Shown: positions 1 through 13,995 of the stretch, in pieces
How positions within the stretch are numbered: the first letter of the stretch is position 1
How the letters are laid out: every line of letters starts with the position of its first letter
From: Curvularia clavata
Lineage: Eukaryota
NCBI GenBank assembly: GCA_023920165.1
Contig: CP089274.1
Location: 2,480,001-2,544,000, forward strand
Reading direction: 5' to 3'
DNA length: 64,000 nt
The notes under the pieces: generated by a model
What the model saw: only the letters and a program-made list of their open reading frames with translations
What the model was told of the DNA's origin: nothing
Database searches by the model: none
Program-made: the position numbers and the translations under genes

Positions 1-373
1 CACCTCCATGCCCGAGGACCTTCCCATTCAGCCCGGCGGCAACCCCGCTCTCTGGGAATCCCTCTACAACGTTACAGTCTCCGTCGCCAACACCGGTGAT
101 GTCGCCGGCGCCGCTGTACCCCAGCTGTACGTTGGCCTGCCTTCTTCCGCCCCTGCCGGCACCCCCGTGCGCCAGCTCCGCGGCTTCGAGAAGGTGTACC
201 TTGAGAAGGGCGAGTCGCAGAGCGTCAGCTTCGAGCTGCAACGCCGCGACCTCAGCTACTGGGATGTTGTCAGCCAGCAGTGGGTTATTCCTGAGGGTGA
301 GTTCAACATTTGGGTTGGACTCAGCAGCAGGGATTTGAAGGTTAAGGATAGCTTTACGGTTGTTGGACAGTAA
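1..373 (+). CDS. GH3 beta-glucosidase, C-terminal part with Fn3-like domain (gene starts upstream of the window)
   Basis: ORF 8..373 has PGGNPALW, V.NTG.VAG..VPQLY, P.RQLRGFEKV.L..GES..V.F.L.RRDLSYWD and VG.SSRDL, typical of fungal GH3 C-termini. Confidence 0.93.
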   Translation, partial: TSMPEDLPIQPGGNPALWESLYNVTVSVANTGDVAGAAVPQLYVGLPSSAPAGTPVRQLRGFEKVYLEKGESQSVSFELQRRDLSYWDVVSQQWVIPEGEFNIWVGLSSRDLKVKDSFTVVGQ

Positions 374-879
374 AAGATCCTGGCCAGGAAAAGTGTTTAC
401 GTGATTATGAGTATACGAACAGATAGTTAATTTCTATTGTTTCCTAAACTACTCCTTGTGGGGTTTGATGCTCGTGATGCAAATTTCATGGGCTGAACAT
501 GCTTTGTTATCTGATATTTGATTGAGCTCCTCACACGCTGTTGTGCAGCAGTCGACGAACACCAAATCTATATCTGGTATGAGCTTACATCAGTAGCGTG
601 GCAGGGTGAGGGATCGCAATCATGCAGTGATACAGCCTCAACAAGGATAAGCCAGCACAACTTGGACATCACGGCATGTACTGAATAAGAGAGTAGAGTA
701 TGACGAGACCTTAGCGTTCCATTTTTTTTAACAACAGGCAGAATTGACTTTCCACCAAATAGCCAAATACACGAGTCCCTTCCTCCAATGCCTCCCGATG
801 CACTCAACACATTAAGGCTTTCTCGTCACCACTCGCCAACACCCACCCACCAACTCATCCCGAGCTTCTATTGCACCAA

Positions 880-1775
880 CACGCTGGAGCGACATTGACA
901 CCGTGCATAATGCCGGGCAACCTTCCATTAATGCAAACGCAACGCGAGCCAGATTCCCAGAAGCCCATCGCTGTTCCCGGACCCCCACCACACCGTCGGA
1001 TCACCGCTACTATGATCGCAGAGCCGTTCTCACCCGAAATCGCTGGAGTGACATCACACCGAAAACGATGGTCGGGGACCTTCCATTAAGGTAGAAACCA
1101 CGCTGCTCCAGAATGAGAGGTCGTTGATCGGCAGGTGTGATGTAGCTAGGGTACTGAAGAACTTGGTGCGGTGAAGTGAGGCGGAGTAGGATAGAAGTAC
1201 ATGAGAAGAGAAGAGTCTGTATGATGTTAGCACGGCACAATGGATGGCGGGAAGTGACTTACGCATCGCTGCTATCTACAAACGATGTCAATTATTTGAT
1301 AGTTATTCAGTGGCAGAAGATGAGCTTCGAAGCCACGGCAAGCAGCAGAACGCTCGCTTGAGTTAATGTTCAAGGGTGTGTGATGAACCCGAAATGATGC
1401 CAGCCACGGAAGTGCTTGCTAGAATGAGTGCCAGCGACGGTCACTCATACTGCGACTGACTTGTGGTCTTCGGTGGCTGGCAATGGCTGGCTTTTCAAAC
1501 CTGCCGATGGTTAGGAGTAGATACGAGATGCCATGAAGGCGTATACTTGTTGTTTGGCGCCCGCCTGAGCGGGTGCTCCATCTGAGCCGCATTTGCTTCG
1601 AGTTGACCGACCTTCAAGGCAAGCAAGGTGGGTTCCGACCATGGTGTCTTTGAGAGAAAGTCATGAATAAGGCTGAGAAGCGAAGGGATGTAACAGTAGT
1701 AGAAAAGTGTGAAGTTTGTTGTGTGGCTGGTGGAGGAGAAGTGGGGAGTAGTGGGTAGCAGGTATTATATAGTGA
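880..1775 (-). other. Candidate spliced non-coding or small-ORF transcript (boundaries approximate)
   Basis: Minus-strand TATATAA at 1771-1765, pyrimidine-rich leader, canonical intron 1262-1217 (GTAAGT..GCTAAC..CAG), probable introns 1546-1501 and 1460/1450-1276, and no recognisable ORF. Confidence 0.5.
882..1112. repeat. Two degenerate direct repeats (cores 882-931 and 1041-1089)
   Basis: CGCTGGAG-Y-GACAT..ACACCG-[16 variable nt]-ACCTTCCATTAA present twice, 37/50 identity by manual alignment. Confidence 0.85.
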
Positions 1776-4016
1776 GAGACAGGCGGCGCCAAGCCTGAGG
1801 CCACGTGATACGCGGCCGTTTGCTACCATACTACGTGCCCCATTTTTATGAAGTGAGGATGTTTACTCACTTCATAAAAGCGGGGCGCATTATCGTCAAA
1901 CCAGCGATAAGAGCCTCTAGGATTTTCTGCCCAGTTCTGGTGCTTTCTGTGTGGAATCCAATTGCGCCATGAGGCCACTGGCTTGTGATGTGGTGAGGGT
2001 GAAGGAGAGATATGAGTGATGCGCTGGAGCGGATGATACTTATGCCCGGTATCTGAAATCGAGTGATTAAGAGCTGAGTTATGAAGGTAATTGTATGGCA
2101 TACATGCATATGTTTGGATTATGCATCGCAAATATCTCAAATTGTGTCGGGCCCCCTTCGATAGAGGAACTGCTCAAGTTCGAAGAAGTACTAAGATGAA
2201 TGAACCCTCCTTACTGATCATATTGGCCAGTATCCTCCATTCACGAACCTTTCAATGTATGCAGTTCCTATTGGAATTTGGTATGTGTCCAATTGGAAGT
2301 GCCACACAGCTGCAGTAAAGTATTAGTAAACAAAAAGTGAGCGGCGATACCTGCCTCGAGTTATATCATGTTCCTTGCCGACTCTTTGTACTATCTAGCG
2401 TCGTGTCCGTACACTAAAGAATCTTTTGGTTAGCCAGGCTCGGGATAGGAGTGGATCGCGTCAAGCGTTCTTGAGGCCATTAGAGAACATTAGCTTACCG
2501 GATAATACTTGATCCCAACTCCACTATCCATATAGGGAAACCAAAATCCAGGTTTATGACAGTAGCGTTGCGATAATTTGCAATCTACTGCCTTGAAAGG
2601 ACCAACGCATAAGGACCCAAGGTCCGCAGAGACAAATGTGCTAGAAAAACGGCACGTGTTAGCTGTACGCCTTGGCTAGTGATGCCAAGGGCATTGTAGG
2701 TTGGGTTTACCGTACGCAGAATTGTAGAATATGGCGACAGCTTAGACTAGGCCAATGGTTGCTTAGACTGCGTGCTCTTGACTTTTATGGTGAGATGGGT
2801 GTGGAAGATTAATATGCTGAACAAACAATTGAACATTCTAAATGCGTAGGTTAGGACGAAGTTATATACCTACATATGTATCTTACGTGCATATACGCCT
2901 AAATAGAGTTTGCTTATGATCTAGAGTTGCCTTCTAGTGCTCCGAGTTTACAGATGTCCCCTCGTGTGAGACTAAACTAGCCATGCGTAATTTGGGTCGA
3001 ACGACGGCATGCAATTGGCCCAGCTTACCGAACAGTCCCATCGCAACTGCTATTGCATTTTAACCTAGTTTAGAGAACGGGGGAGTGCCATCTGCATCGC
3101 TGGGTCATATGCGTTTTAAGCTTTGTCGCCACTATGCATAGGGAGGAACCGCATTTCGATTGTTGTAATAGGCACTCGATAAGATATACTGGAGCATGAT
3201 CACATGGTACTAGTTGCGCCTGGCTACTGCTGACATTGGTACAGGTCGTACCGAACTCTGCCTATTCAAATCAACAACTATTCTGATCTAGAGCGACCAG
3301 GTCATGAAATGCGTTGACATTTAGAGAAAGGGGTTAGAGTTCCGCCGAAAGCAATGCTGGCTGAGACTAGAGCAGCTTTCCACATAAAGCCATTGCCTAT
3401 CGAGCGTGCTTTGCTGCAGGACCTATGGCTCTGATCCATCTAGTTGAACTGAATATATAGGTAAGGCGCCGACAAGATATTCCTGGCCGCTTATGCTCGT
3501 CGTGTTCCTGGGTCGATGTAGGTACAAGACGGTAAATGAGTAGAAATAGTATTGAATATGTTACATGGGTATGCTATGAGAGCGAGAATGAAATGCAAGT
3601 CAAATTCTTACCCTAATTCATGATCGAGTCCAGATTGTGCATGGATATACTCATGCGGTTGAATGTACCTCTGTTATGACAACTTGTTTACAGCTAACAT
3701 GTAAGGTAAAGAGAACTCTCAGGGTGAACGTATGAAAAATCATCCCAGAAATACTTGCAAATCAATCCATTGAGTACCCCATCAAGTCTCGTTCTCAAAC
3801 TATCGATCCGATACAGGGTGGAGAAGACCAGACGTTGAAAGCGGAAATCCGAGGCACGTCCCAATCGGAGAAACCCCGGCCTGACCCCAAAACTCCCCCG
3901 TCGCATTGTCGCGAAAGAGCTCGCAGCACCCATCTAGTACAGCGACTCCCGCCCTTCCAACGTCCTCCATCTCAGCCCCTCAATCGCACGCGCCCGACGC
4001 GCCAAACACTGCAAGC

Positions 4017-5368
4017 ATGGCCGCCGCCGAAGCCGAAGTTGCAGACGCGCTTTACAACCTGCGTCTCAGTATCAAAGCCAACTCAGCACCCATTCTCACG
4101 ACAAGCGCAACGCCCACCCCTGCAGATACCGTCAGCGATCTCTCGCAAGCAACGCACATCTCGTTCAATCTCGACTCGGGCGAACACCGCAACTTTGCGC
4201 TCAGCACACCGACGCGATTTGCGCCCGATGGCAACCCCGTGGACCTGCGCAGCTGCTACTTTGCGTGGCTCAACAAAGACGCTTCCGTTACGGATTACTT
4301 TGCCGCTGTGCAGACGCTGAATGAGGAGCTACCTAGTGGCGCGGGAGGCAGCGTGCAAAACCTGACCTTTGCGCAGAAGATTGAATTGATTGCTTGGCTG
4401 AGTGGAGAGACGGAGAGCAGTGATAGTATCGCTGCTATAGATGGCGGTGCTCTGACTGCCGCTGCAGGTGACGCCGCTGCCATTGCAGGTGGAAAAGGCG
4501 TCCCAGTCGATGCTGGCAAAGGCACCAAGGTGGGAAGTGCAGGCGGCATGATGGACGCGCGGTTACTACAGATTTACGATGGCGAGCGGAAAATGGGTGA
4601 CCATAACAGCGTCTTGCGAGGAACCAAGAACGTCGTACGTATAACCCCCATTGAAGTAAAATCAAATCAGAAGCAAGCATACTAACTCATCACCCATCAC
4701 AGGACTTCTCCTCCTACCGCAAAATCGCCGCAACCTTCCTCCGCGCCCGCCCTTCAGATCCCAAAGTCCCGCCTCCACAACCCGCTCTCGTCGCAAACCT
4801 TCAAAAGCGTCCTCAGCGCCGCCTCCAACCCATCATTCTTCTCTCACCCTCCGCCTCCTCTCTGCTTCGCACCTCAAACGTAAAAACCTTCCTCTCAGAC
4901 GGCATCTTCGTGCCCCCCAACACCACCGATTCATCCTCTACCTCCGCCAGCGCAAACATGATCCAAATCCAGCGTCTGCTACCCTCGATATCCTCGCAAC
5001 CCCTGACCTTTATCTGCGTCGATAGCACCGCCTCGTTCAAACCCACGTACTGGAGCCGTGTCGTTGCTATCTTTACTACCGGTCAACTCTGGCAGTTCAA
5101 GTCGTACAAGTACACGCAGCCCGCGGAGCTGTTTGCAAATTACCCTGGTATCTATGTCGGATGGAGCACAGAGGAGCCGCCGGAGACGGTCAAGCAGTTG
5201 GGTCGTGGTGTGTTGCCTGTCGGTGTGGACAAGTGGACTGGTAGCGACAAGGGCAGGTGGAGGGATAGGGAGGTGGTGGAGAGGATCTGGGGCAGGATTG
5301 AGGACGGTATGAGGAAGGGTGGGTGGACGAGAGATGGGCCGGGACTCGCTGGGCCGCAGGCACGGTAG
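4017..5368 (+). CDS. CDC73: Paf1 complex subunit Cdc73/parafibromin
   Basis: Exons 4017-4634 and 4703-5368 (GTACGT..CTAAC..CAG intron). Motifs DLRSCYFAWL, LRGTKNVDFS, PIILLSPSASSLL, YWSRVVAIFTTGQLWQFKSYK, RWRDREVVERIW. Confidence 0.93.
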
Positions 5369-5804
5369 AGACGAGGTATTTGAATGTTTTTTTCTTGCAC
5401 ATTGTGCATATGTCAAGTTGTTAGCACGGGATATCCGTCTTTCCCCCTTCGGAGGTGTTTTTGGCGTTATAAAAATCATGCATGGAATAGCATACTTAGC
5501 TTTGGGCATGCCTTTTGGGAATAGGTGCTAGCTTTATTCTATCATCAGTCCAAGGACTCGGAAGTTGCATTGAGAAAAAGAGTCAACAATACCACGCTTG
5601 TTGATCCGAACATTGATAAGATCGTATCTTCATGTATTTCATTCAATAGTCATTATTTAGTTTCTCACACAAGACTATCTGAGGCCCAAAGCAATGAGCG
5701 TCCTGCCCACCGATATGCACAAATGAAGCGTAACCCGCGTAATTACGAAAATAAAAAGCCAAGGCCCAAATCACTTTTTTCGTCCTTAAATCTCTTCGTC
5801 GTTT

Positions 5805-8284
5805 CTACCACTCGAGCGGCTCCTTGAGCTCCTCTCCTCTGTTTGTCTTGGGTACGGCCTGTGCCTGGATCTTAACCGGGCCCTTGCCATGTCTGCTCAG
5901 GTATCCGCTGCCATCCAGCCACGGCCAGACTGCGGTACGCTTCTGCTCATGCTTCTCAATCTTGTCGACGCTCGCCATGGTCAGGCCGATATCGTCCAGA
6001 CCATTGACAAGGCAGTGTTTCCTGAACTCCTCGACTTCGAATTTCGCGAGCTCGGTGCCATCGGCAGAGCGAATGACTTGGTTGGGCAGGTCAACCTCAA
6101 TCTCCTTGCCGGCCCTCGCTTCGTCAGCAATACGCTGAATGGTAGCCACATCTCCAATCCGGATGGGAAGCATGCCGTTCTTGAATGTGTTGTTGAAAAA
6201 GATGTCGCCGAAGGACGGTGCAATGATGCACTTGATACCAAAGTCAAGGAGAGCCCAGGGTGCGTGTTCTCGACTTGATCCGCAGCCAAAGTTGGGTCCA
6301 GTGCAGACCAGGATCTTTGACTTGCGGTAAGGCTCCTTGTTCAGGACGAAATCTGGGTTTTCCTTGTCACTGCCTGGCTCGTAGCGCCATGCGTGGAAGA
6401 GAGCGTTGCCGAGGCCGGAGCGCTTGATTGTCTTGAGGAATTGCTTGGGAATGATAGCATCAGTGTCAATGTTTGCAATGTCCATGGGCGCTGCGTATCC
6501 GCGGAGAGTCTCAAACTTGGGCATGCCTGCTGGCGCACTCGCTGTGCTTGATGTGTTGGAAGCAGTGTGTTGTGGTCCCGAACTGGGCTGGTCCATAAGT
6601 TTGTCAAACTCCTCGTCGCTGCTGGGGGGCTCCACGTGAGCGTCAAGTTCGATCTTAGGGGAACCCGAGGCGTGTGCTGTAGCATCGGGTGCGATTTTTC
6701 GTACATCGGCCAGGTTTCCTACAATGGCAGCAGCAGCGGCCATGGCGGGCGACATGAGATGAGTTCGACCACCAGCGCCCTGTCGGCCTTCGAAGTTGCG
6801 GTTCGATGTTGACGCACATCTTTCGCCGGGAGAGAGGATGTCAGGGTTCATTCCAAGACACATGGAGCATCCGGCTTCTCTCCATTCGAATCCAGCATCA
6901 AGGAAGATCTTGTCGAGGCCTTCAGCTTCCGCCTGCTTCTTGACGAGACCAGATCCAGGCACGATCATGGCACGCTTGATGTTGGAAGCAACCTTCTTGC
7001 CTTTTACAATTTGTGCAGCAGAGCGCAAGTCCTCGATACGAGCATTGGTACAAGATCCAATGAAAATCTTGTCCAAGGAAATTTCCTGCATAGGAGTACC
7101 GGCAGTCAAGCCCATGTACTTCAGTGCGCGCTCACACGCCGCCTTTTTGACCTCATCCTGGAAGTCATCGGGGCCAGGCACTACACCAGTGATGGGCACG
7201 ACATCCTGAGGCGAGGTTCCCCAAGAGACTGTTGGCGCAATGTCCTTTGCGTCGATCAAGACCTCAATGTCGTACTTGGCGCCTTCATCCGACTTCAGGC
7301 TGAGCCAGTAATTGCATGCCTTCTTCCACTCTGGGCTGTCGACCTTTGGCGCCAGGGGCCTACCCTTGAGGTATTCAATGGTAGTCTGATCTGGCGCAAT
7401 CATACCAGCTCTTGCGCCTCCTTCGATGGACATGTTGCACATGGACATACGCGCCTCCATGCTCAGGCCGCGGATAGCCGAACCGCAGAACTCGATGACA
7501 GCACCAGTTCCTCCAGCGGTGCCGATCTTGCCAATGACATGCAGGATGATGTCCTTGCTGCTAACACCGGGTCCCAGCTCACCATCGACTTGAACCTTCA
7601 TGTTCTTACTCCGTTGGGTGATGATGGTCTGTGTGGCCAAAACGTGCTCGACTTCACTCGTACCAATACCGAAGGCGAGGGCACCGAACGCGCCATGTGT
7701 AGAGGTGTGGCTGTCACCGCATACTACTGTTGTTCCAGGGAGCGTGAAGCCTTGTTCTGGTCCAATAATGTGCACAATACCCTGCCTCTTGTCATCGAGG
7801 CCAAAGTATGTGAGGTCGAAAGCCTTGACATTCTCTTCGAGGGTCATGCATTGTAACCGGGAATCGGCCTCCTCGATGAACTTCTCGGTCGTGGTAAGGT
7901 TTTTTCTTGAGGCGGTAGGGATATTCTGCCCATGTTAGTGACCAGGCAGGCCATGGAGACTTTGTAGCATACATGATCTACTGTTGCAAGAGTGCAGTCA
8001 GGTCTTCGCACTTTACGACCGGCATTGCGGAGGCCTTCAAAGGCTTGCTGTGGTTTTTTGTGAGCTTTGGAGGGGCTGATACCAATTCCGGGGTTTGCCT
8101 ACTGGTGATGTCACTTCGTGGACAAGATGCCTGTCTGCAAATGGGTTAGTTTAGAAGACTTTGAGTCTGCAGTACAAGGCGTACCAATGTAAAGCAGGAT
8201 TGTGCCATCTTCCTTCTCCTCGACAATGTGGTCCTCGAAGACCTTGTCGTACAGGGTCTGCGGTGGTTTCACAGCAGACGGCAT
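5805..8284 (-). CDS. LEU1: 3-isopropylmalate dehydratase (fused large and small subunits)
   Basis: [82 protein letters not shown]. Three short 5' introns. Confidence 0.98.
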
Positions 8285-13305: not shown

Positions 13306-13391
13306 CTCCGCTTGGTGTAGTTGGTTTATCACGTTCGACTGTAATAGCAATTGTAATCGAAAGGTCCCTAGTTCGATTCTGGGAGCGGAGA
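13306..13391 (+). tRNA. tRNA-Tyr (GUA) with 11-nt intron (13345-13355)
   Basis: Acceptor stem CTCCGCT/AGCGGAG plus discriminator A, D arm GTG..CAC with TGG, anticodon stem TTCGA/TCGAA with CT-GTA-A loop, T arm CCTAG-TTCGATT-CTGGG, downstream T-run Pol III terminator. Confidence 0.96.
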
Positions 13392-13995
13392 ACAGCTACT
13401 TTCTTTTTTGATGATGCTATCTCAGATTGCATAGCCGAAAGGATCTCTTTTTTTTGCTAGCGGAGTGGTTAGAAGGGAAATAGTGGGGAAGGAGGGGCTT
13501 GCAGAATTGCCGAGACTTCGGAATGCACGCAGCACGGTTTAGTGCTAGACGAATTGGATCCAGGAAGAGGGAATTAGCAACGTGGCCTGATCAAGAGGTG
13601 GTTCTAACAATGTATTTTTGCAAAGGTCATCTCGAGGTCGGTCGCTCTAGAATCCACCCTATTTGCGGAGGATATCTACTCTTCAATCTTCACTTCTTTC
13701 CATCCAATCAGGCTTCGTGGCGCAATGGTAGCGCGTCAGATTCCAGTACTCACATCTGGAGATTCCTGAAGGTTAGGCGTTCAAATCGCCTCGAGGTCAC
13801 ATACCTGGTTTCCATTCTTTTTGCCAATTTTTCAGACGGATTCTCTAGTCTTTTTTACGCTCTTGTGGGTCTTGCAGGTGTGGCTCCGAGTCCAGGTTGG
13901 GTCGGATGTTGTAAGGAGGGGCGACTCCACCATGAGCCGAGGGGTCTGGACCGGCTTTTTTTGATTGAGTTGATTTGGTTCTATCCAATCTGGTA

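Follow-up and report, generated by a model that had tools for sequence, protein, structure and literature searches.

Host genes for small nucleolar RNAs (snoRNAs) of the UHG/GAS5 type have multiple exons and short, non-conserved open reading frames (ORFs), and their transcripts are expected targets of nonsense-mediated decay; the conserved RNAs sit in their introns, and their exons drift. Plant RNAs of the IPS1/At4 type are mRNA-like, also carry short non-conserved ORFs and contain a functional microRNA-mimic motif of ~23 nucleotides (nt). In fungi, the long non-coding RNA (lncRNA) catalogue of Aspergillus fumigatus describes conservation mostly at the species level (PMC12921299), and a covariation screen (Gao, Jones and Rivas 2021) reported 17 structured RNAs of 48-343 nt, mostly H/ACA-like RNAs and elements of untranslated regions (UTRs) or introns, in hundreds of genomes (PMC8216456). 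In Neurospora, control of transcripts through the exon junction complex and introns spliced from the 3' UTR has also been described (PMC6173133). Here we analyse a minus-strand gene in a 64,000-nt stretch of Curvularia clavata contig CP089274.1 (the window, with position 1 as its first letter). The gene lies within the 3.5-kb spacer between a GH3-type beta-glucosidase gene and CDC73.

We consider it the best explanation, with a probability of about 0.6, that this locus is a clade-restricted RNA polymerase II (Pol II) gene for a spliced lncRNA, the selected and working part of which is the structured last exon. The RNA evidence consists of contigs from four public runs (X1, X3, X8 and X9) mapped to positions 1-5400 of the window. 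Splicing of the CDC73 intron at 4635-4702 in X1, X3 and X9 identifies these three as RNA runs; X8 contained no joints and may be DNA. X1 represents organism A, a close relative of the window organism, and X9 is 99+% like the window; the two come from different studies. Relatives were taken from a CDC73 exon 1 scan of metagenome contigs, which yielded 19 loci (L numbers). Among these, L004 and L007 are the same sequence from two separate assemblies and were counted as one lineage. The parts of the gene are as follows.

1802..1807, minus strand: CACGTG E-box, a candidate promoter element whose start lies 36 nt upstream of that of the TATA box
1765..1771, minus strand: TATATAA box, collinear with TATATAA in L009 and TATGTAA in L004, presumably used in the window lineage
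1547..1740, minus strand: exon 1, with a predicted 5' end, a CT-rich leader and a short ORF from the ATG at 1642-1640 within CACCATG
1501..1546, minus strand: intron A (46 nt, GTATAC..CCTAAC..CAG), conserved in position and retained in the contigs seen
1263..1500, minus strand: exon 2, fast-evolving except for its last ~17-50 nt (GTAGATAGCAGCGA.GC)
1217..1262, minus strand: intron B (46 nt, GTAAGT..GCTAAC..CAG), spliced in X1 and X9
732..1216, minus strand: exon 3, the last exon, delimited by RNA contig ends and an A8 run, with an approximate 3' end
847..1169, minus strand: conserved structured block, closed by the long-range helix 1169-1163/853-847 and identified by blastn, nhmmer and RNAalifold
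1010..1131, minus strand: structural domain 1, holding hairpin core copy 1 (1091-1037); z -4.7, 0 of 200 shuffles as low
858..970, minus strand: structural domain 2, holding hairpin core copy 2 (933-878), with the closing helix 966-958/870-862; z -2.9, 1 of 200 shuffles as low

The minus-strand transcript does exist, and its strand and the splicing of intron B can be read directly from the RNA contigs. The joint 1216/1263, which skips 46 nt and appears as CT..AC on the plus strand (GT..AG on the minus strand), is present in both X1 and X9, that is, in two studies and two organisms. With an X1 contig of 1100 nt that covers 739-1216 and 1263-1886 across this joint, the transcript belongs among the spliced lncRNAs, both by its length (>200 nt) and by its spliceosomal introns. 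The initial annotation of this locus, made from the sequence, had listed CACGTG at 1807-1802, TATATAA at 1771-1765 and intron signals at 1546-1501 and 1262-1217, all of which are in place. Such motifs alone could be chance; RNA and conservation together raise them above that level. The intron proposed at 1262-1217 is exactly the one removed in the X1 and X9 contigs, and its 5' splice site, branch point and 3' splice site are all kept in L004, L007 and L009. The described shift from C-rich to G-rich sequence along the minus strand was likewise reproduced (plus-strand GC skew of +0.50 at 1600-1799, and of -0.39 and -0.43 at 800-999 and 700-899). A middle intron from 1460 or 1450 to 1276, followed by a 13-nt micro-exon, had also been suggested and found no support, this sequence being unspliced in all three covering contigs (X1 record 1; X9 record 21, 1263-1388; X3 record 7, 1294-1441). 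Contigs lose rare isoforms, so minor spliced forms may exist, and X9 has no cover over 1441-1620. At the downstream end, RNA contigs stop at 739 (X1) and 732 (X3), just before the genomic A8 run; since no poly(A) loose end was reported there, the 3' end is approximate.

L004, L007, L009 and L006 share GH3-CDC73 synteny with the window, and a search between the two neighbours recovered the gene in L004/L007 and in L009. In blastn, only 858-1295 of the 3.5-kb spacer aligns to relatives, with 72.7% identity over 454 nt to L009 (E 1e-53, same orientation) and 75.7% over 321 nt to L004 and L007 (E 4.5e-46, inverted); exon 2 of the window gave no blastn alignment to them. The alignable sequence around the block spans 1329-837. 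Block identity is about 73-76% between the window and the relatives and 90% between L004 and L009, and the corresponding values for CDC73 exon 1 are 79% and 90%. Constraint is also visible at short range: between organism A and the window, 739-1216 has 12 differences in 478 nt, and 1263-1886 has 47 differences and two gaps in 624 nt. An nhmmer search of the 64-kb window and the 19 loci returned four matches, all of which are known block copies. Between L004 (4132-5354) and L009 (3753-5028), ~1.3 kb could be aligned in inverted orientation, and this segment contains the whole lncRNA gene in both. The three lineages share one order of features, namely an E-box-like hexamer, a TATA box, a CT-rich leader, CACCATG, a GTATAY intron, an exon of ~240 nt, a GTAAGT intron and the conserved 3' exon, at the following distances (nt; window, L004 and L009, respectively).

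E-box to TATA box (offset): 36, 34, 34
TATA box to CACCATG (offset): 125, 99, 106
CACCATG to the 5' splice site of intron A: 98, 106, 135
Intron A to intron B: 286, 311, 303
Intron B to hairpin copy 1: 173, 154, 176
Hairpin copy 1 to copy 2: 158, 158, 157

Because order and spacing match in L004 and L009, the promoter and the first intron originally proposed for the window represent conserved features. At offset 34 the E-box has the counterparts CATGTG (L004) and CACGGG (L009); its position is kept, and the hexamer only partly. The counterparts of intron A are 45-nt segments (GTATAT..GCTRAC..AAG) at the collinear place in both lineages.

The transcript contains no conserved ORF. In the spliced 2900-700 transcript, no ORF starting with ATG exceeds 71 amino acids, and the codon-usage scores of all ORFs of at least 35 codons range from -0.26 to +0.10, compared with a coding mean of 0.25 +/- 0.18, and lie between the coding and off-frame distributions. 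A Pfam scan of 24 ORFs at E up to 1 left 22 without a match; the other two gave weak matches below the curated cut-offs, to Prenylcys_lyase (E 0.13, 11.7 bits, cut-off 27) and DUF5386 (E 0.019, 15.3 bits, cut-off 27.3). The block alignment consists of nine ungapped segments split by indels whose lengths are not multiples of three, its variable sites show neither 3-periodicity nor a third-position excess, and the frames that stay open differ from lineage to lineage. A frame shared by L004 and L009 has nine codon differences, three synonymous and six non-synonymous as counted from the alignment, and is broken in the window. The ORF from CACCATG encodes 33 amino acids in the window (43 with intron A retained), 14 in L004 and 45 in L009, and these peptides have no similarity to one another. 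A small protein gene was therefore rejected, as no homologous ORF is kept open, the conserved ATG opens unrelated ORFs, and the frame common to L004 and L009 does not extend to the window. A conserved spliced ORF, which would have made the locus an ordinary protein gene, was found nowhere across the three lineages, and the option of a micropeptide, also raised in the initial annotation, is weak. When the minus frame 858-1085 was searched against 1.84 billion representative proteins, the only matches were P0002 (an ankyrin-repeat protein, over 16 stretches) and P0003 (a repeat protein), whose 29-31% identity was judged to be chance inflated by repeats.

The same ATG raises the alternative that the transcript is an mRNA for a fast-evolving micropeptide or a regulatory short ORF starting at CACCATG, the block serving as a structured 3' UTR for the control of translation, stability or localisation. 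Three lineages keep the ATG context at a similar distance from the TATA box, the leader is CT-rich as in fungal mRNA leaders, and structured 3' UTR elements are among those reported from Pezizomycotina (PMC8216456). However, the residues of the ORF are unlike, including those of L004 and L009, two lineages with 90% identity in the block; the codon-usage scores fall short of the coding mean; and the stop codon lies >200 nt before a spliced junction, a layout predicted to provoke nonsense-mediated decay (PMC6173133). We regard this alternative as unlikely, though it deserves some weight.

The RNAalifold consensus of the last exon is a two-domain fold closed by a long-range helix. Compensatory changes, in which both sides differ and pairing is kept, affect 18 of the 109 predicted pairs; shuffled alignments gave 8.2 +/- 2.0 (none of 500 reached 18), and slid partners gave 0-4. 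Column shuffling of the whole block yielded a z of -5.5 (0 of 100 as low) and a structure conservation index (SCI) of 0.91, compared with a null value of 0.69 +/- 0.03, whereas the control, CDC73 coding sequence from the same three genomes, had z values of -2.2 to +0.7 and an SCI equal to the null. The sense strand scored z -4.6 with an SCI of 0.91 and the antisense strand z -2.1 with an SCI of 0.76, and G-U pairs occupy 45 of 294 cells. These compensatory pair changes, together with the preference for a sense strand rich in G-U pairs, argue for selection on the RNA. Single helices illustrate this pattern. Helix 966-958/870-862 reads GCUUCU/AGAAGC, GUUUCU/AGAAAC and GCCUCU/AGAGGC, amounting to two independent double compensations; helix 927-924/888-885 (UGGA/UCCA versus CGAA/UUCG) adds two further ones; and in helix 952-944/884-876, UGG has changed to CAA with pairing kept against an invariant GUUGG.

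The block is also an internal duplication of a ~55-nt hairpin, the copies of which are 157-158 nt apart. The conserved internal-loop hairpin has the form UUAAUGGAAGGU...CCCG-loop-CGG...AUGUCRCUYCRGCG. Orthologous copies resemble each other more than paralogous ones do, which dates the duplication to before the lineages split, and all six hairpin cores, two from each of the three lineages, adopt one common fold in which 4 of 13 pairs are compensated. A covariance model of the hairpin core, applied to 178 kb, recovered eight training copies and four weak partial matches, one at 7214-7244 of the window (20.4 bits, E 6.5e-4) and the others in L003, L008 and L009 (E 1.3-2.1).

Conservation of this kind might also reflect a regulatory element at the DNA level (an enhancer, insulator or nucleosome-positioning element) that serves GH3 or CDC73 and has transcripts as by-products. 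Such an element would tolerate inversion if it were orientation-independent, the block does have the same pair of neighbouring genes in the window, L004/L007 and L009, and the RNA contigs are few and short. A purely DNA-level role is nevertheless very improbable, given the compensatory changes, the sense-strand preference and the many G-U pairs, the conserved and used splice signals of intron B, and the fact that the architecture from promoter to block inverts as one unit.

This inversion is part of a wider instability. The gene is convergent with GH3 in the window and L009 and in tandem with CDC73 in L004/L007. L003 and L008 are 95% like L004 downstream of L004 position 5709 and unrelated to it upstream. 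Because the gene is inverted between L004 and L009, whose CDC73 sequences are 90% identical, and because the upstream DNA of L003 and L008 is unrelated, the spacer is a rearrangement hot spot. A protein search with the plus frame 763-1086 identified P0001 (148 amino acids, from a 902-nt public contig; one match among two candidates), whose first 58 residues are an antisense translation of block part 895-1068 at 88% identity and whose remainder is a Glu/Gln-tRNA synthetase anticodon-binding fragment (PF03950).

A decayed remnant, whether pseudogene or mobile element (domesticated or degenerate), that is transcribed and spliced without a function of its own would fit a rearrangement-prone locus of this type (inverted in L004/L007, absent from L006, with different upstream DNA in L003/L008), and P0001 places part of the block beside an unrelated gene fragment in another contig. 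Most Aspergillus lncRNAs in the published catalogue are, in addition, conserved only within species (PMC12921299). Yet the block retains 73-76% identity while other spacer sequence is beyond alignment, has no protein homology in any frame, has no second copy in the 64-kb window or the 19 loci, and keeps a structure conserved beyond the controls. We therefore find a mere remnant quite improbable.

Several observations weigh against our preferred explanation of a conserved lncRNA gene acting through its last exon. Only three independent lineages carry the block (the window, L004=L007 and L009). L006, from the same clade, has a 1.1-kb GH3-CDC73 spacer without the gene, so the RNA must be dispensable there or relocated, and the DNA upstream of CDC73 is different in L003 and L008. 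Even at short range, divergence in the block is about seven times that of CDC73 coding sequence (2.5% versus 0.36%). The preservation of CACCATG in all three lineages hints that translation matters. As to the fold, the consensus structure was derived from the same alignment on which it is scored. When minimum free energy folds of single sequences were transferred between lineages, the signal was modest: of the two-sided changes, 13 of 16 were kept when the L004 fold was placed on the window and 8 of 14 when the L009 fold was (slid partners, 1-7), and one-sided changes were no better than the control. Intron A, the first intron of the initial annotation, has its positional counterparts in L004 and L009 but both of the contigs that span it keep it unspliced: X1 record 1 (continuous over 1263-1886) and X3 record 8 (1467-1602), each from organism A. 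Similarly, the E-box-like/TATA layout of the proposed promoter is conserved, but two contigs run through the TATA box from upstream (X1 record 1 to 1886; X9 record 22, 1732-1894), so this promoter is not the sole transcription start in these samples. Finally, the junction of block and synthetase sequence in P0001 may represent a second copy in a near relative, a rearrangement or a chimeric assembly.

Known RNA classes offer no ready assignment. In a search of Rfam 15, positions 400-3900 of the window gave only sR41 (E 1.7), 720-1330 gave zero matches at E up to 10, and the L009 counterpart (3650-4300) gave four chance-level matches (E 1.2-9.5); no family was thus found in the spacer, the block or the L009 counterpart. 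RNase P/MRP, the signal recognition particle RNA (SRP), small nuclear RNAs, telomerase RNA, riboswitches and ribozymes, like any other Rfam 15 family, were rejected for lack of a covariance-model match, and 400-3900 contains no tRNA gene. A likeness of GGAAGGUCCCCGAC to RNase MRP/P was dropped, having no Rfam match even at E 10, as were 5S-like runs, which had no Rfam match. The initial annotation had offered a small-RNA host gene as one option. This option fails, since the four verified introns are short (46, 51, 75 and 85 nt), the minus strand of 700-2900 contains no RUGAUGA (RTGATGA) box, and no snoRNA family scored better than E 1.7, so that neither a box C/D snoRNA nor its host is indicated. 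A box H/ACA snoRNA was rejected as well: the linker AUAGUA of the window is ACCGUC and ACCAUG in the relatives, no ACA follows domain 2 in any lineage, and Rfam gave no match, although no snoGPS-type program was run. Telomerase RNA in particular would need a template of at least 8 nt; with a TTAGGG repeat assumed, the sense strands of window 700-2900 and of the L004 and L009 spacers were found to lack any 8-mer of (CCCTAA)n. Just past the block in L004 (~5330-5350), GGGGTTAGGG comprises 1.5 telomere-type repeats, and the window and L009 have other G-rich sequence at this place.

The core of the initial annotation, a spliced Pol II-type gene on the minus strand that converges on GH3, has no long ORF and is a candidate structured lncRNA, is thus borne out by RNA splicing, by collinearity and by the fold of the 3' exon. 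The RNA is probably a new structured non-coding RNA within the class of conserved structured RNAs of fungi.

How might such a gene work? Transcription would start from the TATA promoter at 1771-1765 on the minus strand, a use that we infer from its conserved layout, and would end, presumably by polyadenylation, near 735, giving a spliced RNA of ~0.9 kb. A CT-rich leader with a short non-conserved ORF and two introns of ~46 nt would be followed by the last exon, ~320 nt of which (1169-847) would form two domains in tandem, with the same ~55-nt internal-loop hairpin at the heart of each. Because the two hairpin modules are alike, this fold may be a bivalent platform with two like sites for one or more RNA-binding proteins. 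The lncRNA would act in trans, with no role tied to one neighbour, because sequence and fold are kept when the orientation to both neighbours flips. As the short ORF is followed by a spliced intron >200 nt downstream, nonsense-mediated decay is expected to act on the RNA and would thereby hold its level low and leave it open to regulation. A more specific version, which we put forward tentatively and to which we assign somewhat less than even odds, is that the block defines an undescribed structured RNA family, in which two tandem domains of ~115 nt with a shared hairpin form the core of a trans-acting ribonucleoprotein, carried on a twice-spliced, decay-sensitive transcript whose level is set by splicing and by translation of a decoy ORF.

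In the sampled relatives of the window, transcription also enters the gene from a spliced unit further upstream. This unit and an adjacent hairpin comprise the following features.

1895..2815, minus strand: upstream spliced non-coding unit, with exons 2815-2716, 2640-2499, 2413-2104 and 2052-1895
2715-2641, 2498-2414 and 2103-2053, minus strand: introns of the upstream unit, seen in X1 record 2 (710 nt, three CT..AC joints) and X9 record 23
1817..1901, minus strand: extended 85-nt hairpin with 21-nt arms (1886-1866/1857-1837) and an 8-nt loop, just upstream of the E-box

The upstream unit, which has a TATATAA at 2868-2862, contains no ATG ORF of >63 amino acids within 2815-1895 and does not align to the relatives. 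It abuts the conserved gene and may either read into it or end near 1895. Between this unit and the conserved promoter sits the hairpin at 1901-1817 (-61 kcal/mol, z -6.8); no close inverted repeat in the 64-kb window is stronger. No comparable hairpin is present in the L004, L006 and L009 spacers, and its arm (1837-1886) is not repeated elsewhere in the window. Contigs end near the 5' foot of the hairpin, at 1886 and 1895 in X1 and at 1894 in X9, and a poly(A) or cleavage site at this place is possible. With regard to a microRNA-like (milRNA) precursor or an RNase III substrate, these contig ends are a hint and no more. A search for tandem repeats found only a 10-nt run of 2.5 copies at 1730-1755, and a scan for bacterial-type promoters and terminators remained at chance level.

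The flanking genes are both on the plus strand. The last exon of the beta-glucosidase gene lies at the start of the window, where frame 2-373 encodes an Fn3-like C-terminal domain (PF14310, E 3e-29). Its mRNA has a poly(A) loose end at 452 in an X9 contig, 79 nt past the stop codon. A gap of ~280 nt separates this end from the 3' end of the lncRNA (732-739), and the convergent transcripts thus appear without overlap. CDC73 starts with the ATG at 4017, has a GT..AG intron at 4635-4702 and matches CDC73_C (E 4.5e-49). Upstream of its start, a 244-nt X3 RNA contig at 3553-3800 may represent a long CDC73 leader or a separate transcript. Two plus-strand tRNA genes (13306-13391 and 13711-13799) are the sole Rfam matches at gathering score in the 64-kb window.

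The compensatory changes and the duplicated hairpin module make this locus a tractable case for the role of a structured lncRNA in a filamentous fungus, and the size of the domains suits chemical probing, pull-down and compensatory mutagenesis. The outcome also indicates that splice and promoter signals recognised by eye can flag real non-coding genes that annotation pipelines miss. Among known systems, the lncRNA resembles UHG/GAS5-type host genes in being multi-exon, in its short non-conserved ORFs and in its expected sensitivity to nonsense-mediated decay, but its introns of 46-85 nt lack snoRNA boxes and it is the exon that is conserved. It shares with IPS1/At4 RNAs an mRNA-like form, short non-conserved ORFs and one conserved RNA segment; that segment is, however, a 320-nt fold instead of a ~23-nt microRNA mimic, with no evidence of a small-RNA partner. 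As in the Neurospora cases, a stop codon lies well upstream of a spliced junction, but those transcripts, as reported, are protein-coding mRNAs (PMC6173133), whereas decay of the present RNA is expected from its layout. Like the RNAs of the fungal covariation screen, the block is supported by compensatory changes, occurs in Pezizomycotina-type genomes and has no Rfam family; unlike those RNAs as the screen describes them, it is a two-domain fold of ~320 nt from the last exon of a twice-spliced RNA, seen in one narrow clade (PMC8216456). It is set apart from the 17 structures of the screen, and from the motifs of Li and Breaker, through Rfam 15 only. With the intergenic spliced lncRNAs of A. 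fumigatus it shares a length of ~1 kb, Pol II-like features, introns, a lack of coding capacity and few, short RNA contigs; in contrast to what that catalogue reports, the 3' exon of the present gene is about as conserved as a coding exon among lineages whose CDC73 nucleotide identity is 79%, and its fold is conserved as well (PMC12921299). Fungal lncRNAs are usually reported as species-restricted, and a fold has been demonstrated for few of them; a syntenic spliced lncRNA with coding-exon-like conservation would differ from them in both respects.

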